Positions 53,833 to 63,921 of a stretch of 64,000 nt of DNA are shown here, piece after piece (positions within the stretch are counted from its first letter, which is position 1; each line of letters begins with the position of its first letter). This DNA comes from Promethearchaeota archaeon Loki_b31 (GTDB lineage: Archaea; Asgardarchaeota; Lokiarchaeia; Sigyniarchaeales; SOKP01), in assembly GCA_005222975.1 (NCBI GenBank), contig NJBI01000006.1, forward strand, positions 38,698-102,697. The letters run 5' to 3'. The notes beneath the pieces were generated by a model. The model was not told the origin of the DNA, searched no databases, and saw only the letters and a list, made by a program, of their open reading frames with translations. A program made the translations under genes and the position numbers.

Positions 53833-55119
53833 ATGGAAAATGATTTTTGCATCCACACATTTAAAGGGGAAAGGTTACTTCCTGAATCTGTTCAATTATC
53901 TCCTGATGGTAAATATGTAGTAAGTTTTGCTTCTCATGATAAAACCTACATTTGGGAATTATCAAGTAGAAACTTAATAAAAACTTTTAATGGCTTAAGC
54001 TGGAATGTTGTGTCTGCTGATGGTAAATATATTGCAGGTGAATGGACAGATAAAAGAACATTTAAGAAAAATTTAAATATATTTAGATTTCCTGATGGAC
54101 CATTAATTAGTACAATAAATATTGAGATAAGAACTCATTATTGTATACTATCAATTGACTTCTCCCCAAGTGGAGACTACATAGCAATATTTGTAGAAGA
54201 TATGGACAATGATAGAGAACACGCAGAAATCTGGGATTTAAAATCCAATAAAATTGTTAAAAAATTAGAAGATTATAATTTTTGCATAATCTCCCATAAC
54301 TGGACATATATTATTTTCTTGGATAACGAAAATAATTTTCTTATTAAAGATTTCTGGTCTGAAGACTTGATAAATAAGATAAAAGGTGATACAGAAGATT
54401 TATGGGCAATTCGGACATCTCATGATGAGAACTATTTTATTGCAAGTTATGGGGAAGACTTAGAAACATTAGAAGAAAATCCTCAGCGGGATATGTATAT
54501 AAAAGTTTGGAATATCAAAACAGGAGAGTTAGTTTGGGACTTAAAAGGATCTATGTTTGGGTCAGTATCCACTATCTTTTCTCCTGACGGAAACTATATC
54601 GCTTCTGGATGGGCTGAGGGAACTATGATAGTCTGGGATTTTCAGAACGGAAAGCAGAAGTTAAAATGGCAAGGACATGATGATCACATCTCATCACTTA
54701 GTTTTTCTCAAGATGGAAATCTTTTAGCTAGTAGTTCATATGATGAAACTATTAAAATATGGGATTTTGCCGGATTAATCCAAGAAAAACAAAGAATTGA
54801 AATCTTATACACAGAGCAAAGAGAAAAAGAAAGACAATCAGAATTGAATAACAGAAAAATTATTAAAAGAATATTATTAGATTACAGTACTAAATTTGCT
54901 CGAATTCAAGTAAATGAACTAATTGAAAAAATAAAAATAAATGACGAAGACTTAATCATTGATGTAATAGTAGAAATGATCAGAAACAATGAGATCTACG
55001 CCGAATATTTTTTAAGTAGTAAAGCTGTTGTATTTAATCAACAAGCAAACATAGATGAAATTGATCGCTTAATGGCAACTTATAAAGAGTGGGAGAGTAA
55101 AAAAGAGAATAAAAAGTAA
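53833..55119 (+). CDS. WD40 beta-propeller + PCI-like winged helix + conserved C-terminal motif
   Basis: FSPDGNYIASG...IVWD, GHDDHISSLSFSQDG...IKIWD; ends IDEIDRLMATYKEWESKK. Confidence 0.88.
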   Translation: MENDFCIHTFKGERLLPESVQLSPDGKYVVSFASHDKTYIWELSSRNLIKTFNGLSWNVVSADGKYIAGEWTDKRTFKKNLNIFRFPDGPLISTINIEIRTHYCILSIDFSPSGDYIAIFVEDMDNDREHAEIWDLKSNKIVKKLEDYNFCIISHNWTYIIFLDNENNFLIKDFWSEDLINKIKGDTEDLWAIRTSHDENYFIASYGEDLETLEENPQRDMYIKVWNIKTGELVWDLKGSMFGSVSTIFSPDGNYIASGWAEGTMIVWDFQNGKQKLKWQGHDDHISSLSFSQDGNLLASSSYDETIKIWDFAGLIQEKQRIEILYTEQREKERQSELNNRKIIKRILLDYSTKFARIQVNELIEKIKINDEDLIIDVIVEMIRNNEIYAEYFLSSKAVVFNQQANIDEIDRLMATYKEWESKKENKK

Positions 55120-55280
55120 ATTAGCATAACCAAGTTTTATCACCTAAGATGTAAAATATTTCTAAGAGAGCTTGAATAATAACTATTCTCCTTTTATATC
55201 CCCATCAAACTGTAAGACATTCATTTTTATTGAAGTTTTTTAAATTACTAATTATTCTTCTTTTCTAAAAAATTGAAAAC

Positions 55281-55306
55281 TGTTCCCATATGGGAACATT
55301 TATATA
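55281..55306 (+). promoter_or_regulatory. Perfect 18-bp palindromic operator abutting a TATA box
   Basis: TGTTCCCAT|ATGGGAACA (55281-55298) followed directly by TTTATATA, about 50 nt upstream of ATG 55359. Confidence 0.7.
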
Positions 55307-55358
55307 TTAAAACTTCTATTACTTTATTGAAAAAAAAATAAAATTTGGGTTTCAATAC

Positions 55359-56738
55359 ATGCCAATAGAAGAAGATCGTATTCGAGAATTACCAAAAAGC
55401 CTTCAAGGGATAGAGATTATACTAACCTATTTAAACGAGAGAAATAAAGATTCTTTAAGCATAAGGAACATAAGTGAAAACACAGGACTTTCGATGCGAG
55501 TTACTAAAAACATTTTATTGCAATTAGAGAAATTTAATCAAATAGAAAGAGTCGTAGAAAAAAATAACATTCTTCCAAAATGGAGAATAACTAAGTTTGG
55601 AAAAAAAGTTCTTAAAGAAGCGGAAGGAATACAAAAAAAAATTGAATTTCCTAGTAGAGAAGATGAATTATTAACTAATATATTAATTCCAGATAACATT
55701 GAAGCTCTTAAGGCAAAAATTAAAGAAAACGTCGAAAATAATATTTCAAAATTAAAATCAATGCAAAATGACTTAAGTAAAACATTAGGAGCAGTATTGA
55801 ATTTAAATAATCCCATTTTTGAAGACTTGATGGGTGTTATCATTAACCGTATCAAATTTATTAGACAACAAATTACAAATTTTCCTTCAGATCCGTTAGC
55901 AGTTTATCAATTAAAGAAGATAGAAGAAAAGCAGAAAAAGGTTCCAAAAGAGGAGATGAAAACTCTGTTGGCAGAAATTTTCTTCATTGACTCTATTATG
56001 CACAATGAGTTGAATCGTATAAATGATTACAATATGAAATTATCTCAATTCTTAGAGAGAGAGAAAGCATCTAAAGGCTATTCAACAGCAAAAGATTTAC
56101 GTGAAGAAATCAGGATTTTTCTAAATTTAATTCGTAAAAGAGAGTCCATTAAAATTAATTCTCATGTCCTATCTCCTGAAAATTTAAGACTAGTTTCTAA
56201 AAATAAAATCACTCCAGAAATTTTAAATACCATAATCGAAAGTCCTATCACTGAAGAAGAACAAACTGAAGAAATTAAAATTATTGTAATAAGCCTTATA
56301 ACAAAATTAAATAAAGGAGAGAAACATATCGAAGGTTATACTGTTGATATAACTGAAAATATACCATTATATACTTTTTATCAATTAATACTAGACGAAA
56401 ATCCAAATTTTGATATTACTATCGAACAACTGGAGGAAATTATAAATTCGCTTGCGGAGGAAGGGTATCTGCCAGGTATTAAAATAATTCAAGAAGATGA
56501 GGATCACTACCTTAAACTAGTTCAGTTTAAAGTTAGAGATATTTCTAAAAATGAGTTAGAATTAATTACCAATGCGTTAAGATTTCAGAGCTTTGCATTA
56601 GCAGATATGGTTGGAGCAACGGGATGGAGCACTATTCAAGTGGTAAAGATTTTGAATCATCTTACTGAATTAGGAATTTTAAAATATTTAAAAAATCACC
56701 TCCATGGTGATCGTTGGTATATTGTATCTGAAAACTAA
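55359..56738 (+). CDS. N-terminal wHTH + coiled coil + EAP30/Vps22/36 (ESCRT-II)-like tandem winged helix
   Basis: The C-terminal IPLYTFY...ITIEQLEEIINSL...GIKII...LVQF...ISKNELELI...ALADMVGATGWSTIQVVKILNHLTELGIL...WY parallels the EAP30 consensus. Confidence 0.65.
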   Translation: MPIEEDRIRELPKSLQGIEIILTYLNERNKDSLSIRNISENTGLSMRVTKNILLQLEKFNQIERVVEKNNILPKWRITKFGKKVLKEAEGIQKKIEFPSREDELLTNILIPDNIEALKAKIKENVENNISKLKSMQNDLSKTLGAVLNLNNPIFEDLMGVIINRIKFIRQQITNFPSDPLAVYQLKKIEEKQKKVPKEEMKTLLAEIFFIDSIMHNELNRINDYNMKLSQFLEREKASKGYSTAKDLREEIRIFLNLIRKRESIKINSHVLSPENLRLVSKNKITPEILNTIIESPITEEEQTEEIKIIVISLITKLNKGEKHIEGYTVDITENIPLYTFYQLILDENPNFDITIEQLEEIINSLAEEGYLPGIKIIQEDEDHYLKLVQFKVRDISKNELELITNALRFQSFALADMVGATGWSTIQVVKILNHLTELGILKYLKNHLHGDRWYIVSEN

Positions 56739-56771
56739 AATTATTTAATATAAAAAATGTAAATAGAGAAA

Positions 56772-57629
56772 GTGAAAAAAATGTTTAAAAAAATTAAAGA
56801 TAAAAAATTCAAAGACTACGATCCCGAGATCATTGCGTGGCAGAGAGAAACGAAGGAAAGATTAGAAACACCTTTAATGTATTTATTTCCTCAACTAGGA
56901 GATAATATTAAAGAAAAGAAATTTTTTGCGGTAAAAGATTATGAAAAAACACTTTTTTACAATAAAGGAGAGTTGATTGGCGTTCTTGGAGGAGGAGTTT
57001 ATGAACTTGAAAAGAAAGCACGAATTAAAGGAACAGAAATTGTTTGGATTGATACATCCTTTAATGAAATTCCATGGGGTATTCCACAATCGGAGGGTAT
57101 TCCTACTAAAGATGGATATATAGTTGGATTATATGGGGATTTAAAACTAAAAATTAGCGATGTAAAGGTGTTCTATAATGATGTCGTAGCAGGGACGAAA
57201 ATATGGACTATTCAAAACCTTAAAGAGTGGATTGTTAGTCTTATGCATACATCTTTACGAGATATATTTAAAACTTATAATGCAAAAAGTATAATTTTAG
57301 AAGACCGCGAGCGTGTAATTAATTTAACTACTGCTAAAGTTACAGACGAATTTTTAAGATATGGCTTAGAACTTGAAACTTTTAATGTTATTGGTATTAG
57401 GGCTCCCGATGATGCTGAAAAACTTTTTAAGGAAGATAAAGAGAGAATTGAATATTTTACTAAACAAAAAAAGAATCTCCAGAAACGCATTGAGGAATTA
57501 AAGAATAGATTGAAAGAACAGCAAGATCTTTTATTGAAAGATAAAATAACTCAACAAGATTACAATAAGAAGAAAAAACAAATTCAAATGTTTATTGATG
57601 AAGTTCAAGATGAATTAAAAAAGGATTAG
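56772..57629 (+). CDS. SPFH/Band-7 domain protein (YdjI-like) with a coiled coil and a SHOCT-like tail
   Basis: LFYNKGEL...GVYEL, EIPWG, TKDG, LRDIF, YGLELETFNVIGI; KITQQDYNKKKKQI. Confidence 0.78.
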   Translation: MKKMFKKIKDKKFKDYDPEIIAWQRETKERLETPLMYLFPQLGDNIKEKKFFAVKDYEKTLFYNKGELIGVLGGGVYELEKKARIKGTEIVWIDTSFNEIPWGIPQSEGIPTKDGYIVGLYGDLKLKISDVKVFYNDVVAGTKIWTIQNLKEWIVSLMHTSLRDIFKTYNAKSIILEDRERVINLTTAKVTDEFLRYGLELETFNVIGIRAPDDAEKLFKEDKERIEYFTKQKKNLQKRIEELKNRLKEQQDLLLKDKITQQDYNKKKKQIQMFIDEVQDELKKD

Positions 57630-57643
57630 TCAAAAAATGTACA

Positions 57644-59406
57644 ATGAAATACTATAAAATTGTTATCCAATTTAACTCCCAATCGAAATCAGGAAAAATT
57701 TCTGAAGCAATTAAACTTGCTAAAAGCCTTAAAGCCAAATTTGATGGAAAGTATTATAAGTACTTTTTAATTCTATCAATGATAAAAATCTTCTATTATT
57801 AAGCAATTTAATAGGATTTCTGAGTGGTTCTCGGATTTTTATTGATGATGAAGATTGTGGGCGACCCTATAGATTGGGTGAAAGACTAGATTTTAAAAAT
57901 AATTGTCCAGATTATGAAGATTTTTGTAATGGAAATTGTTCTATTACCATGTTTGGAACTGAGGATGATCTTAAAATTGCGAGGAGGATTTGTAAAAAGT
58001 TTAAAGAACCTAAAATACAAAACACAATAACAAATGAAAAAAAAAAAAAAGAGAAAATTGTTTTCCAATTTAACTCCAAATCTAGAGGGGGGGATGTTCC
58101 TGAGGCAATAAAAATTGCTAAAAGTCTTGAAGCCGAATTTGATGGGAAAAATTATATGGTCTATTTCGATTCTGTAAGCAATGAAAATCTGTTATTATTA
58201 GATAATCTAGTGGGGAGCCTAAGTGGCACTCGATTTTTCCTTAATGATGAAGAGTTAGATCCATCAGATATCAGATTAATATTTAACTGTAATGAGAAAT
58301 CAAGATGTAAAGGAAAATGTGTATATACTTATATTAAAGAGTTATTTGACAGAGCAAAGAAGTTTTGCGAAAAATTTGATGAATCTCTTAGTATTGAAAA
58401 ACCATTATTAAGATATAATGGATGTGAAATTAAATGGATAAAAAATGAAGATGATCCAATATTCCCTAAAAATCCAGATAATAAATATGTATTGATTGAT
58501 AGTCCTAGAAATTTACCGGGGGATATTATTGGAGTAGAGATGGAAATGGAAGGTTTATTTTTCGGCCATATGAAATATGATATGATGGAAGAGGAAGTTA
58601 CCATAGCTGAGGAGGAAGGTTATGTATTAGATATGTCTGGATTAGGTATCACAGATATTGCAAAGATTGAAGGATTAGAGAAACTTACTGAATTAAAAGG
58701 TTTGAATCTTGGTGGAAATGCAATTTTTGAAATTAAAGGAATTGATAAACTTATCAATTTGGAATATTTAAGTTTTGGAGGCAATAATATTTCGGAAATT
58801 AAAGGACTCGAAAATCTTGTTAATTTAAAAGGCTTAATTTTACGGGGAAATCAAATCAATGAAATTAAAGGGTTGGAAAATCTTATTAATTTATTTTATT
58901 TGGATATATCTGAGAATCCAATTTCTGAAATTAAAGGGTTAGAAAATCTTATTAACTTAAAATATCTCCATCTTAATGAAATTAATATCACGGAAGAATT
59001 ATTAGTACAAATTGCTCAAGAAAAACCGTTGTCTGCCATATCACCAAGCTGGTTAAAAACTAGATATAATTATTATAATATTCCTGATTATGCTCAGAAG
59101 TGTGTTAAATATTGTCAGAGGAAGAAAGCTAAGATGGATCGAGAAGATAAAGAAAAAGTCAAAATAATTGAGAAAATATTGATTGAAGCGGATTCCATTC
59201 AACTTGACACCTTAAGAAACGCTCTAAAAATGGATGTTCATAATTTTAATAATAAAATTCTAGATTGGTCAATTGATTATGGATTTGAAATTGATGGGGA
59301 TTATTTAATTACTAATAAAAATACCGTCTCTGCCTTTATTGATGAATTAGATAAATATTTTACTACGTGGGATAAAATTGAACTTAAAAAAAATAATAAA
59401 ATTTAG
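57644..59406 (+). pseudogene. LRR protein with a duplicated Cys-containing N-terminal domain, WH and conserved C-terminal motif; one frameshift near 57758-57760 (downstream ORF 57874..59406 intact)
   Basis: The ATG 57644 frame matches the internal repeat at ~58053 up to FDGKYY, then continues in the 57874 frame; EIKGLENLxNL LRRs; ends FIDELDKYFTTWDK. Confidence 0.75.
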
Positions 59407-59414
59407 CCTTAAAA

Positions 59415-60608
59415 ATGGTCTTAGAGGAGATTGAACTAATTAACCACTCACCACCATATGGTGGTTGGTATTTTATGAGGTTTAGAAGAAATTTTTGGCA
59501 ACTCAATACAACTAATTTCGTATTTATTTTACATGATAATTTTAAGCATTGGATCAATAAAGAAGTAATTCGGTTACCCCCCAACCACTTCCCTGCTCAC
59601 TTATCCAAGAAATGTATTCCTCTATATTTACCCTATAATTTGTTATGTTTGCATTACAATAGGAAAAATAATAAATTCCGATTATATGTAAAGGAGAAGA
59701 TCACTATTAAAGCGCTTAATGATTTATGTAATTATTTCAATTGTACAATCCCTTCTATAAAAACCCATGGAATATATTTAAATGAATTTGATGATCCTGA
59801 TAAAACAGAATTTAAAAGAACTAAATTAGGTGAGATATATATTGAGGAACCTAAATGTGGAGAAAATTGTGTTCTCTATAAAGGGAAAGAATATTTAATC
59901 AAGATAAATAATGGTTATGGAATATTAGATTTGAAAAATTTGGGAATTAAAGATCTTTCAGAAGTTAAAGGGCTTGAGAATCTTAAAAATTTAAGTAGAT
60001 TAGACTTGAGTAGCAATAAATTGATTGTAATCAAAATTTTAGAAAACCTCAAGAATTTATATTATTTAAATTTAAATAATAATAAAATTACCGAAATTAA
60101 AGGATTAGATTCCCTTAGAAAGTTAGGATATTTATATCTTAATCATAATAAAATTACTGAAATAAAAGGACTCGAGAGTTTTCATATTAGAGAATCTCAT
60201 AGTACAGCATATGATATGGTAATAAACTTAGGAAATAACCCGATACCAGTATCCATATTATATGAATTAGGAGGATTAGATAAAGCTGGAAATGCTAACA
60301 ATCCAAAAAAAATAGCAGACTATTGTATCAAGAATAAAATTGAAAAAGAAAAGCTTAATAGATCGATCAAAGAAAAATTGAAAAAGATCTTAAAAGTATC
60401 AAGTCGTTTCCGGCTTGATATGTTAATGGATATACTTGATATGGACAAAAAATTTCTTCTTAAAGAAATTAAGAATCTGGTTTCTGATTTTGGTCTCGAA
60501 ATAAATGAAAATTATTTGATCATTAAAAATAATACGATCTCGGATTTTATTGACGCTCTATTTTTGCAATTTAATGAATGGGAAAAAGATAGATATAAAA
60601 AATCATAA
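59415..60608 (+). CDS. LRR protein + WH + conserved C-terminal motif
   Basis: EVKGLENLKNLSRLDLSSN-type LRRs; ends FIDALFLQFNEWEKDRYKKS. Confidence 0.85.
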   Translation: MVLEEIELINHSPPYGGWYFMRFRRNFWQLNTTNFVFILHDNFKHWINKEVIRLPPNHFPAHLSKKCIPLYLPYNLLCLHYNRKNNKFRLYVKEKITIKALNDLCNYFNCTIPSIKTHGIYLNEFDDPDKTEFKRTKLGEIYIEEPKCGENCVLYKGKEYLIKINNGYGILDLKNLGIKDLSEVKGLENLKNLSRLDLSSNKLIVIKILENLKNLYYLNLNNNKITEIKGLDSLRKLGYLYLNHNKITEIKGLESFHIRESHSTAYDMVINLGNNPIPVSILYELGGLDKAGNANNPKKIADYCIKNKIEKEKLNRSIKEKLKKILKVSSRFRLDMLMDILDMDKKFLLKEIKNLVSDFGLEINENYLIIKNNTISDFIDALFLQFNEWEKDRYKKS

Positions 60609-60735
60609 AAATCTTACTAAATAATTTTGGATTAAATTGTTAATATGTGAGAAAAAAAGCTGATAATGAAAATGTACAATAATGAAACTAAATAAATTAA
60701 TTATATTAATTCAATAAAAATGTCATAGAATTATC

Positions 60736-61275
60736 ATGAATAGTGTAGACACAGAAAGAATTGATCGAGTAATTAAATTATTAAAAGAAAATTTAGATTT
60801 TATCAATAAACTAGAAGATATGATTGAAAATGGCGCTACAGGTTATGAACTAAATTTTGAAATTGAACAGTTTAAAAAATATATTAAGAAAAAAGAAAGA
60901 GAATTTGAAGATTCACTTTGCAAACAATATGAAATTGAATTTAAGGATTCAAACGAGATATATGAAAAGGTTGATGAACTACTACATTATCTTTATATCT
61001 CTTATCCCCGTAGTAGTCATTTAATTCTTATTGGAGTTAAAAAAATTAGAGATTCAAAGGAGATAATAGAATATAAGGTAATTAATAAAAATTTAACCAA
61101 GGAAAAGGGATTATTGATTAATAGAATTGGATATTTAGAATTTTTAAAACAAAAACCAAAACCTAAAGAGATTAAAGCGAAAATGGATTACGAAAAAGAT
61201 TTAGATGATTTTATTGGCTTTTTAGACGAGAAATTCAAAGAATGGGAGCAAAGTAGAAGTGAGAAAAACGATTAA
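60736..61275 (+). CDS. Hypothetical protein carrying the conserved C-terminal motif
   Basis: Ends LDDFIGFLDEKFKEWEQSRSEKND. Confidence 0.75.
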   Translation: MNSVDTERIDRVIKLLKENLDFINKLEDMIENGATGYELNFEIEQFKKYIKKKEREFEDSLCKQYEIEFKDSNEIYEKVDELLHYLYISYPRSSHLILIGVKKIRDSKEIIEYKVINKNLTKEKGLLINRIGYLEFLKQKPKPKEIKAKMDYEKDLDDFIGFLDEKFKEWEQSRSEKND

Positions 61276-61296
61276 AACCTAATATTAAAAAAGATT

Positions 61297-61413
61297 ATGC
61301 ATAGATTAATGTCGCAATTCCGAGAGAATTGCATTATACAAGGAAAAAGAGGGGATTTATTAAAGTTTAAAGTAGGAGATACTATTTTTTTATTTTTGTT
61401 TAAGCAAAAATAA
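61297..61413 (+). repeat. Dispersed repeat copy 1 encoding a QFRENCIIQGK...FKVGD micro-ORF
   Basis: Translates as MHRLMSQFRENCIIQGKRGDLLKFKVGDTIFLFLFKQK*; similar to 62982..63080. Confidence 0.6.
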
Positions 61414-61552
61414 TCGATAATAATGAGTGAGGTGATATTTTTTTAATATAAAAAAAGGAAAATTCGATAATGCACAATGGCTAAGAGAAGAATTTATAAA
61501 TAAGGAGAAATCAGTTTATCAGATAGCAAAAGAATGTAAAGTACCTACTCAG

Positions 61553-62911
61553 GTGATATACAAAAGATTAAATGATTTTGGGATAAAATTAGAAAATCCT
61601 TGGACGGAAATTAGAAGAATGGGTGCCCAAAGTGCTAGAAAAGAAAGAGAAAAATTGAAAAAAAAATATAGCACAAAGAAATTATTCGAAATGGCGCTAT
61701 CTTATACATTAGAGAACAAATTGTACGAAGCACGAGAATTCTTTGAATTAACGACTGAAAAAGATCCTAATTATTTTCTTGCTTGGGTTAATATGGGTAT
61801 AATTTACACATACCACAATTTACTTGGGAAGACTGAAGGTAGGAGTACAGCATGGTATAAAAGACATTATGATGAAGGTATTGAATGCTTTAAAAAAGCA
61901 CTTGAACTAAGACCGTATGATATCACCTGTTTGATCGGTTTAGGAGACGCTTACAGAGGAAAGAAAGAATTTGCTAAATCAATTGAATGTTTTCGAGAAA
62001 TCATAAAAAGAACACCTAAAAATTTTAAAGATTTGAGTGGGATTGGATTTACATTTTTAAATGCAAATAGTATCAAATATCGATTGGAGGAAAAAGCTAT
62101 CGATGAATTTGTCCCTATTAATAAAGATTATCAATTATTGAGACAATCAGGCTCTTATCTTGAAAAAGAAAACAAAATAAAATACGATATCGCATTGAGA
62201 AGTATGTCGAAAGTTTTAAAATATCAAAAAATGCAAGAGCTACCAAATAAATATATAATTAGTCGAGAAATTTATAGTAATAAAAGAGAATCTATATCAA
62301 AAATAATTAGAACCATCGAATATGAAAAGGAGAAAGCAGAATGGAAAGAAACTAAAGAGTATAGAGATCTGGAAGATAAAAAAATAATAGAATTCATAAA
62401 ACCTTACAAAGAAATTGCTATTTGCACGATTACAGAACATTTTCTATCAAAAGGCAAGTACGCCGACCCAAAAAAATATTATCAAACTGCCAAAGACACA
62501 ATAAAAGAAAAATTAAATAGTCTGATTGAAAAAAAAATTATTCAAGGTTCTATTCAGTCTTTACCCAATAAAATCGGTCTATATTATATTAATGAAGAAA
62601 AAATTGAAGAGATTAAAATTAAAATTGTCTATCAAACATTGATAGAATTTTCGGGAAAATTTCCGAGAATATTTTTACAGGAAATAGTTGAAAAAGTTAA
62701 TCATAAAATTGAAAAGCAATTTAACAACTCTGCTAAAATGTCACAATTAAAAGTAAAGGAAATAGTTATAAGTTTAATAAATAAAAGATTAATATTCGCA
62801 AATTATGATGATTCCTCAAATGGTATTGAATTTCTGGTTATGGAGAGAAAAATCGACGAATTATTTACAAAATTCGATGAGTGGAGTGAAGAAGACAAAA
62901 AAAAGGTTTAA
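61553..62911 (+). CDS. TPR protein + tandem WH/PCI-like domains + conserved C-terminal motif
   Basis: DPNYFLAWVNMG, GIECFKKALELRP, LGDAY; ends RKIDELFTKFDEWSEEDKKKV. Confidence 0.85.
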   Translation: MIYKRLNDFGIKLENPWTEIRRMGAQSARKEREKLKKKYSTKKLFEMALSYTLENKLYEAREFFELTTEKDPNYFLAWVNMGIIYTYHNLLGKTEGRSTAWYKRHYDEGIECFKKALELRPYDITCLIGLGDAYRGKKEFAKSIECFREIIKRTPKNFKDLSGIGFTFLNANSIKYRLEEKAIDEFVPINKDYQLLRQSGSYLEKENKIKYDIALRSMSKVLKYQKMQELPNKYIISREIYSNKRESISKIIRTIEYEKEKAEWKETKEYRDLEDKKIIEFIKPYKEIAICTITEHFLSKGKYADPKKYYQTAKDTIKEKLNSLIEKKIIQGSIQSLPNKIGLYYINEEKIEEIKIKIVYQTLIEFSGKFPRIFLQEIVEKVNHKIEKQFNNSAKMSQLKVKEIVISLINKRLIFANYDDSSNGIEFLVMERKIDELFTKFDEWSEEDKKKV

Positions 62912-62981
62912 TCTTCTTTTAAAAAAAATTTAATAAAAGAATATGAAAAAAGTAAAAAATTAGAGGAGGAAAATAAGAAGA

Positions 62982-63080
62982 TTGAATACTTACAAATTAA
63001 TACCACAATTTCGAGAAAATTGCATTATTCAAGGCAAAAAAGAATGGTTATCAGAATTTAAAGTTGGAGACAATTTTTAA
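62982..63080 (+). repeat. Dispersed repeat copy 2 encoding a QFRENCIIQGK...FKVGD micro-ORF
   Basis: TTG start after AGGAGG; translates as MNTYKLIPQFRENCIIQGKKEWLSEFKVGDNF*. Confidence 0.6.
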
Positions 63081-63105: not shown

Positions 63106-63921
63106 ATGGAAGAAAAAAAAATCAATTTAGACGATTTATTAAAAGAAATTAAAGTTGGTAATAGCTTCATTTTTAAAATTGAAGAAATCAAATTAAATCT
63201 TGAGAATGAATTAAATAAAAAAGAAAGAAAGTTAGAAAAGGTAAAAGAAAGAAAAAGAGCAGGGAAAAAAACTGGTAGACTTATATATGCCCTTATATGG
63301 GGGGGGATATCGGTTGGGGTTGGTATTACTGTTTTTAATATTTTTTTTGGTATTTTAATTATGACATTGTCAATTTTACCTGGAATGTTATACCTTTATT
63401 TTATTTATATTACACCAATAAAGCTACATAGAGAGGTGTACGAATTAAATAGAAGTATAGATAAAGAAAATTTAAATAAAAAATTAATCACTGACGATGA
63501 AGATTTTCGTGTGATTCTACAAAAAAGAAGAACAGAGCTTAAAAATCTTGCGATTAAATTAAATGAAAAGGAAAAAAGCAGGAAAAATTGGTTATTAGTG
63601 ATAGAAAAAAATAAAGACGAAATATTTTGGAATATTTTGCGGAGAAGGTCGATACGGAGGTTAGATATCAAACTGACCAAATTAAAATCTGAAATTCGGG
63701 AAATAGAAAGAATTATACTCCATTATTTAATAAATGGTGGTGAGAGAAATTTAGCCATAAAAAATTTTTTAGTTGCTCATCAAATATTTGAGGAAGCGTT
63801 AAAAATAGCCGATAAACCTGAAGATGTTAACATGCTTAAAACAAAACTTAATCTTGCTGAAAATGAGATAAATAAAAAAAAACTAAATTTTTCGCCAACT
63901 TTATCGACAAAAAGAATTTAA
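63106..63921 (+). CDS. Coiled-coil protein with two TM helices
   Basis: Hydrophobic hairpin at about aa 59-103, flanked by K/E-rich helices. Confidence 0.7.
   Translation: MEEKKINLDDLLKEIKVGNSFIFKIEEIKLNLENELNKKERKLEKVKERKRAGKKTGRLIYALIWGGISVGVGITVFNIFFGILIMTLSILPGMLYLYFIYITPIKLHREVYELNRSIDKENLNKKLITDDEDFRVILQKRRTELKNLAIKLNEKEKSRKNWLLVIEKNKDEIFWNILRRRSIRRLDIKLTKLKSEIREIERIILHYLINGGERNLAIKNFLVAHQIFEEALKIADKPEDVNMLKTKLNLAENEINKKKLNFSPTLSTKRI

Follow-up and report, generated by a model that had tools for sequence, protein, structure and literature searches.

The window analysed here is a stretch of 64,000 nucleotides from Promethearchaeota archaeon Loki_b31 (GenBank assembly GCA_005222975.1, contig NJBI01000006.1, positions 38,698 to 102,697 of the forward strand), whose end is also the end of the contig. 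Its region 53833-62911 holds seven co-oriented genes on the + strand, five of which encode proteins sharing one C-terminal tail, I[DG]xLxxx[FY]xxW followed by a Lys-rich end (Table 1). An earlier note on this DNA, made from the letters alone, had described the region as an array of variable recognition proteins bearing a common tag. The ends of the five tailed open reading frames (ORFs), at 55119, 59406, 60608, 61275 and 62911, and the tails themselves were given exactly, and Pfam agrees with the reported succession of a WD40, a leucine-rich repeat (LRR), a second LRR, an unassigned and a TPR protein, returning nothing for the unassigned one, 60736-61275. The array is less contiguous than proposed, however: the five tailed genes stand, but they are interrupted by the untagged 55359-56738 and 56772-57629, and the first LRR gene begins upstream of the ORF as called. 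Its real start lies at ~57644, a 1-nt frameshift near 57760 splitting the N-terminus, as seen by tblastn with the 591-amino-acid (aa) orthologue from a related genome (G017), residues 1-42 of which match in one frame and residues 40 onward in another; this frameshift could be a true lesion or an assembly error. As detailed below, the tail is best explained, with a confidence just short of even for the explanation as a whole, as part of an Asgard (Promethearchaeota) protein-protein assembly module that has been shuffled onto many recognition scaffolds.

Table 1. Genes and gene remnants of the array region and of the adjoining end of the contig. HMM, hidden Markov model; WH, winged helix; wHTH, winged helix-turn-helix.
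Feature	Position	Strand	Remarks
WD40 propeller protein with module	53833..55119	+	428 aa; module 54853-55116; Pfam WD40 87 bits; tail HMM E=1.9e-9
Vps22/EAP30-like protein, untagged	55359..56738	+	459 aa; N-terminal wHTH, helical middle, C-terminal tandem WH; conserved anchor gene of the cluster
SPFH/Band-7 protein, untagged	56772..57629	+	285 aa; Pfam Band_7 and Band_7_1 ~40 bits
LRR protein with module	57644..59406 (ORF as called 57874-59406)	+	Module 59146-59403; Pfam LRR_4; tail HMM E=1.5e-9
Second LRR protein with module	59415..60608	+	397 aa; module 60360-60605; Pfam LRR_4; tail HMM E=1.5e-10
Short tailed protein	60736..61275	+	179 aa; terminal helix only (~61195-61269); no recognisable WH, no Pfam family
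5' stub of the 360-aa cluster gene	61297..61413	+	~30 codons; upstream of the TPR gene; tblastn match C96:99997-100089
TPR protein with module	61553..62911	+	452 aa; module 62609-62908; Pfam TPR_2 46 bits; tail HMM E=4.2e-8
Truncated start of the 360-aa cluster gene	62982..63080	+	32 codons; tblastn 69-71% identity, confined to residues 1-32
Last gene of the contig	63106-63921		271 aa; coiled coil and membrane segments; stands in place of the operon continuation

The last ~82 residues can be aligned among four of the five array proteins and a sixth protein encoded elsewhere in the genome, and AlphaFold2 models them as a WH (H-b-H-H-b-b) followed by a 25-residue helix, with a mean pLDDT (predicted local distance difference test score) of 82 when five sequences are supplied and of 84 with 142 sequences. 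According to these models, the tag is not a free peptide but the terminal helix of an acidic WH plus helix domain of ~80 residues, referred to hereafter as the module. In the 179-aa protein, which the earlier note had singled out as bearing the tag without a WH, the domain HMM indeed matches the helix part only (positions 60-84), and for the N-terminal part of this protein no relative turned up in the genome or among the loci retrieved. Across 142 diverged copies, S14, L26, F33, W40, F46 and I48 of the WH core and F63, L67, F71 and W74 of the helix are all at least 90% conserved, with values of 94-99%; the last four make up the F-x3-L-x3-F-x2-W face of the long amphipathic helix, on which the acidic D68 and E78 are retained in 120 and 110 of the 142 copies, respectively.

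Neither Pfam, NCBIfam nor the PDB sequences recognise the module as a family, and NCBIfam and PADLOC return nothing specific for the array genes. A PDB sequence search with the 142-sequence module profile gave nothing below E=0.44. At the level of structure, a Foldseek search of the PDB yielded no match at E<=1e-3, SarA coming closest at 0.018, and a wide VIA-align search yielded generic WH matches only (Z<=6), among which the WHs of PCI subunits, PCID2, UFL1 and DDRGK1 appear at Z ~5. Given a WH fold, and lists of Foldseek and Atlas matches dominated by transcription factors, the module could be viewed as the DNA-binding wHTH output domain of one-component regulators whose sensors would be the LRR, TPR or WD40 parts. 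We consider this very unlikely. The WH core is acidic (median isoelectric point 4.8, net charge -2) and its third helix, the recognition helix, has a net charge of -1, both of which argue against DNA binding; this helix is dominated by conserved W, A and F, the basic recognition helix and wing typical of MarR/SarA-type proteins were not found, and the affinity of the sequence is to PCI, a WH that does not bind DNA.

That affinity is borderline within the window and firmer beyond it. Against the Pfam PCI model (PF01399; gathering cut-off, 22 bits), the WD40 protein's module reaches 21.0 bits (E=3.8e-4), just under the cut-off, and three other modules of the window do not match the model. The TPR protein carries an additional PCI-like WH upstream of its module (residues ~277-336), which matches Pfam PCI at E=0.005, with values ranging from 0.0048 to 0.06. 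Modules from the arrays of three relatives exceed the cut-off, with 24.4, 24.5 and 29.2 bits, and two of these three match the HMMs of both subtypes into which the module falls, namely a 'FGFxIDGDY' type (both LRR genes plus the sixth protein) and a WD40/TPR type, thereby bridging them. The PCI-like WH that the earlier note had placed before the tail is thus supported, and we call the module a PCI-type WH with its own helix motif, a new family rather than a plain PCI member.

The tail is far beyond chance occurrence. When the complete set of six-frame ORFs (7,868 for a genome of 3.52 Mb) was searched with an HMM of the 23-residue tail, six proteins matched, with E values of 4e-8 to 1.5e-10, and the next match lay at E=0.61. 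Five of the six tailed genes of the genome sit in the array; the sixth, G000:C75:124490-125722, codes for a membrane protein that starts with a signal or anchor segment and an ectodomain and continues, past a membrane helix and a basic stretch, with the module, which is predicted to be cytoplasmic because the basic stretch follows the membrane helix (positive-inside side). The same genome also encodes two WH-only paralogues that lack the F-x2-W half of the motif (G000:C83:104409-105455 and G000:C42:48663-49409). One is a protein with twin PH/GRAM-like domains, the WH and a zinc ribbon, found in nearly every genome of the genus, and the other a 248-aa TPR plus WH protein; both are kept across the genus. 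A ThiF gene near the paralogue on C83 was considered as part of a second tagging system and set aside, as it adjoins a ThiI/NFACT-R gene and looks like an unrelated member of the ThiF family.

Beyond this genome, an exhaustive profile search covering 1.84 billion cluster representatives retrieved the module in 715 clusters at E<=1e-3 and in 185 at E<=1e-10, and these clusters, at least 715 in number, show a domain family without prior annotation. Together with the sixth protein, they answer a doubt raised by the earlier note, that the tail might be limited to the five array proteins. Architectures were counted in the best 150 of the 715 clusters (152 domain copies), where the Pfam partners are LRR (28), TPR (~10) and WD40-type propellers (~5), where 44 proteins have predicted membrane segments and where 21 of the 150 consist of the module alone, with lengths up to 125 aa. 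Other partners include beta-propellers, PH-like domains and ectodomains behind a membrane anchor. The notion of variable sensors mounted on a constant module is therefore upheld on a far larger scale than that of the array. A metagenome protein of 531 aa (P0097) bears an N-terminal module on an acyl-CoA dehydrogenase (Acyl-CoA_dh_M, Acyl-CoA_dh_1), an enzyme and not a recognition scaffold. All named records with the module belong to the Promethearchaeota (Loki-type Asgard archaea), as do the three loci retrieved by a related-locus search with a narrow alignment. Among 301 sampled genomes, all within that phylum, the module occurs in 69, and in the window's own family it occurs in 55 of 68 genomes.

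The tail is Lys-rich, and ~80% of the copies end no more than 15 residues before the C-terminus, so that the observations might have been put down to a C-terminal signal for sorting (the alternative offered by the earlier note), for secretion or for degradation. It hardly seems credible now. The position is not strictly C-terminal: only 120 of the 152 copies are so placed, and the 24 N-terminal copies (typically at residues 6-83 and followed by LRRs) and 8 internal ones bear the same motif. Moreover, the helix is confidently modelled within a folded domain, and in membrane proteins it lies on the cytoplasmic side.

The two untagged genes that interrupt the array connect it with a conserved gene cluster of related genomes. 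The first, 55359-56738, has no direct Pfam match, and its best PDB sequence match is human SNF8, weak at E=0.54. A profile of 18 of its orthologues matches the canonical Pfam-EAP30-positive protein of the genome, C14:33563-34279, at E=1.1e-8 over ~160 residues (model positions 295-456), so that the protein is homologous to EAP30/Vps22 (PF04157; Atlas feature score 0.83) in its tandem WH, in line with the earlier note's description of this neighbour as EAP30-like. Orthologues are found in 22 of 121 genomes of the family. Nineteen loci around this EAP30-like gene were examined. An SPFH gene adjoins it in 18 of them, and in 16 the pair is followed by genes for a 360-aa zinc-ribbon protein, a ThiF-type activating enzyme (E1; ThiF 183 bits), a protease of the JAB/MPN type, a UFM1-like tag (88 aa, ubiquitin-like, with DRGIVG at its end) and a UFC1-like conjugating enzyme (E2), which scores 24.0 bits for a Pfam cut-off of 25 and many homologues of which are precomputed as PF08694. 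In four loci the tag is fused in frame to the E2, giving a protein of ~270 aa (L005:17775-18587, L016:4131-4943, L019:7696-8508 and L023:6283-7098); in other genomes the tag has an 88-aa ORF of its own, which overlaps the beginning of the E2. Freeing the tag from the fused form would require the JAB protease.

Module genes lie within 10 kb in 8 of the 19 loci, in at least three genera, for a chance expectation of ~0.03 module genes per 20 kb (a handful per genome of 3-5 Mb), the related genomes not being independent of one another. In L007 (genome G017) and L015 (genome G356), where the clusters are intact, module genes occur in between the genes of the operon, L015 having eight such genes, and both paralogous clusters of G017 have module genes beside them. 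The variable parts in the arrays of relatives include LRR, TPR/ARM and SBBP propellers with TSP3 repeats. The enzymes of the cluster have tails of their own: all 15 cluster E1s (L005-L027) end in [LI]-D-[DE]-[FLY]-I-[DN]-x-[LM], and the JAB proteins have a conserved F-x-W helix 15-25 residues before the C-terminus. About half of the cluster SPFH proteins end in F-[IL]-[DNE]-E-x3-E-L. These E1, SPFH and JAB tails may be common docking helices or merely reflect a likeness of composition; by analogy, the F-x-W helix of the JAB proteins recalls the bundling of C-terminal helices in MPN and PCI subunits.

In the genome studied here, the enzymes of the system are either absent or were not assembled. 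The anchor genes are 94-95% identical to those of G017 (L007, G017:C77), and blastn homology with L007 extends beyond the TPR gene but ends at 63078, after the first 32 codons of the 360-aa gene. The gene that follows, 63106-63921, has no relative in four related genomes. The TPR protein shares 70% identity with the one encoded in G017 immediately before the 360-aa gene. The upstream stub, 61297-61413, aligns with the N-terminus of the 360-aa protein as well and is also present in G017 (L007:7780-7872), which suggests that the TPR cassette is flanked by an insertion-site duplication; both micro-ORFs of the array are thus 5' stubs of the gene that comes next in the operon. Two array genes, those of the WD40 and the 179-aa protein, lack a syntenic counterpart in G017, where 60628-61315 is unmatched. 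Between the two genomes, the number of synonymous substitutions per site (dS) is 0.09-0.15 for the anchor genes and 0.41-1.4 for the array genes, with a sharp jump of divergence at the boundary between the SPFH and LRR genes (55267-63078 compared with L007). The dS of the array genes being far above that of the anchor genes, the comparison points to replacement of cassettes by recombination, and not to vertical descent. An 789-aa UFL1-like multi-WH scaffold fused to the C-terminal domain of the ESCRT-I (endosomal sorting complex required for transport I) protein Vps28 is encoded outside the window (G000:C18:21262-23631, L029:3363-5732; E3_UFM1_ligase 63 bits, DDRGK 60, PCI 83 and C-terminal VPS28 26), in a genome where UFM1 and UFC1 were not found.

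With one LRR gene frameshifted, the 360-aa gene truncated and the WH lost from the 179-aa gene, the array could be taken for what is left of a single duplicated gene in decay, surviving by chance now that the operon enzymes are gone; the earlier note had itself entered such a caveat for the tails as remnants of one duplicated gene. The array genes look selected rather than dead, however: the ratio of nonsynonymous to synonymous substitution rates (dN/dS) is 0.19-0.41 throughout, modules included, and that of the module, at 0.36-0.41, denotes purifying selection. The modules are mutually only 20-37% identical and stand behind unrelated N-terminal folds, and the family is conserved over the 715 clusters. 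Decay of a single duplicated gene is accordingly a highly improbable account of the array.

We therefore return to a module for protein-protein assembly of the PCI kind. This assignment rests on the fold type, on the hydrophobic stripe of the helix with its acidic residues, on charged linkers, on the predicted cytoplasmic position and on partners rich in WHs or of the MPN type. In the mechanism that we tentatively favour, with somewhat less than even confidence, the array proteins would be exchangeable receptors assembling with one another and with the cluster of Vps22-like, SPFH, JAB and UFM1-type components. The domain itself, its distribution, architectures, selection and genomic surroundings are shown, whereas physical binding and the identity of the partner are inferred. 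Through the WH and the terminal helix, the adaptors would join one another as well as WH or MPN components of the cluster, much as in the assembly of the proteasome lid, the COP9 signalosome (CSN) and eIF3, and each variable domain would provide this one machine with its own target or location. The array itself would then be a fast-turnover adaptor set inserted beside a conserved accessory cluster.

Several observations weigh against such a mechanism. Most modules of the window fall short of the Pfam PCI cut-off, and the fold matches reach just Z 5-6, values common for any WH. Profile comparison with hhalign gave a probability of 0.2% for the module against the EAP30-like neighbour and of 0.4% against the UFL1-like protein of the genome. 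No close E1, JAB, tag or E2 was found in the assembly (92% complete), in which the array genes nonetheless look selected. No UFC1-like E2 was found in six module-bearing genomes, one of which is 100% complete in 10 contigs. A profile of the anchor gene searched in five module-bearing genomes (three of them among the six without E2) found the special EAP30-like gene in none, matching only an ordinary EAP30 protein of ~245 aa in four and nothing in the fifth. Finally, three module genes lie on metagenome contigs among mostly unrelated neighbours. Because of the genomes without E2, the absent EAP30-like gene and the dispersed genes, the module is not strictly tied to the cluster. The common machine postulated by the earlier note is thus supported as far as the genomic tie to the Vps22-like, SPFH and UFM1-type E1/E2/JAB cluster goes, and lacks its enzymatic part in this assembly; in short, the observation is confirmed and the interpretation partly supported.

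Two other readings start from the same neighbourhood. First, the module proteins could be substrate receptors of the ligase (E3) kind, the terminal helix docking the UFC1-like E2 at the site for the C-terminal helix of the E1, and the LRR, WD40 or TPR part picking the substrate to be tagged. In eukaryotes, the C-terminal helix of UBA5 and the N-terminal helix of UFL1 compete for one UFC1 site (PMC10702826); the tails of the cluster E1s resemble the first half of the module helix and the UFC1-binding tail of human UBA5, and in L007 and L015 module genes are found in among those for the E1, the E2 and the JAB protein. The resemblance to the E1 tails is nevertheless weak (<=4.4 bits, E>=0.18) and does not extend to the F-x2-W half, several module-bearing genomes, as well as this assembly, have no detectable E2, and the modules do not match the Pfam models E3_UFM1_ligase (PF09743) or DDRGK (PF09756) even at E<=10. 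Such a role is, on balance, unlikely.

Second, the module could be a generic domain for self-association, as a dimer or oligomer, serving no dedicated machine, its clustering beside the operon reflecting a recombination hot spot for cassettes. The top Foldseek matches are SarA/MarR-type WHs, whose dimer interface is formed by the N- and C-terminal helices; stand-alone modules make up 21 of the 150 representatives, many module genes are dispersed, and the duplicated 5' stubs of the 360-aa gene on either side of the TPR cassette point to recombination at this very place. A hot spot alone would hardly explain why the same cluster is accompanied by module genes in several genera, as are both clusters of G017. 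Plain self-association is a serious rival, to which we give a minor share of our confidence, and assembly of exchangeable receptors both mutually and with the cluster components remains the explanation that we prefer.

UFMylation, PCI-MPN complexes and ESCRT are hallmarks of eukaryotes whose origins are being traced to Asgard archaea. A large and rapidly changing recognition set linked to a UFM1-type E1/E2/JAB cluster with Vps22-like and SPFH partners would provide a concrete way of approaching how substrates could have been chosen before there were canonical E3s, and substrate selection in an archaeal UFM1-type system would become testable, the proteins being small and soluble. The more ambitious possibility is that of an archaeal forerunner of the eukaryotic PCI-MPN or UFL1-DDRGK1 machines, in which the module would attach exchangeable LRR, WD40, TPR or membrane receptors to a UFM1-type apparatus that adds and removes tags and is itself coupled to membrane proteins of the ESCRT-II-like and SPFH kinds, forming an immune-like repertoire. 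We regard this as improbable in its full extent; if it were true, the fast turnover of cassettes would provide a repertoire serving changing targets, for instance viral proteins. From what is available of the literature, patchy Asgard proteins combining TPR, immunoglobulin-like and HTH/PCI domains, and a link between ESCRT and SPFH, have been described (Makarova et al., 2024; PMC10936438), an Asgard origin has been proposed for UFL1 and DDRGK1 (PMC10183829), and Asgard Ufm1 homologues were reported only in 2026 (PMC12962969). The available portions of these three papers, in a coverage of the literature that is not exhaustive, hold no description of the module, its helix motif or its arrays.

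Four known systems invite comparison. With ESCRT-II (Vps22/EAP30, Vps25) and the Asgard ESCRT-linked 'HTH/PCI' proteins, the module would share WH-WH assemblies, and the constant neighbours are EAP30-like and SPFH proteins; it differs in having no profile similarity to that EAP30-like neighbour, and the locus contains no Vps4 or ESCRT-III genes. The F-box and SOCS-box receptors offer an analogy in that varied recognition domains (LRR, WD40) are mounted on a constant docking element to form an expandable repertoire. Fold and motif are unrelated, however, Skp1, elongin or cullin partners are absent, and neither F-box nor SOCS-box families occur among the Pfam matches of the array proteins or their relatives.

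The UFL1-DDRGK1 (UFBP1) E3 scaffold is closer in kind. Its PCI-like WH domains have a flanking helix, which in UFL1 binds UFC1, the membrane anchor, charged linker and WH of DDRGK1 resemble the membrane-bound module proteins, and the genomic partner of the module in relatives is a UFM1/UFC1/ThiF-type system. The module nevertheless has a single WH and not a repeat array, it has no match to the corresponding Pfam families, and the genome possesses a separate, true UFL1-like protein, C18:21262-23631. Finally, PCI subunits are those of the proteasome lid, the CSN and eIF3; in the lid and the CSN, MPN subunits join PCI subunits via C-terminal helices. Unlike these subunits, the module is often carried by LRR, WD40 or membrane parts rather than by a helical solenoid, can be N-terminal and has its own F-L-F-W helix motif. 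Its copies range from 0 to more than 10 per genome, and we know of no complex for the family. The likeness lies in a WH of the PCI type, near or above the cut-off and followed by a C-terminal helix, in the full layout of solenoid, WH and helix displayed by the TPR member 61553-62911, and in the JAB/MPN gene that stands within the same cluster in relatives.

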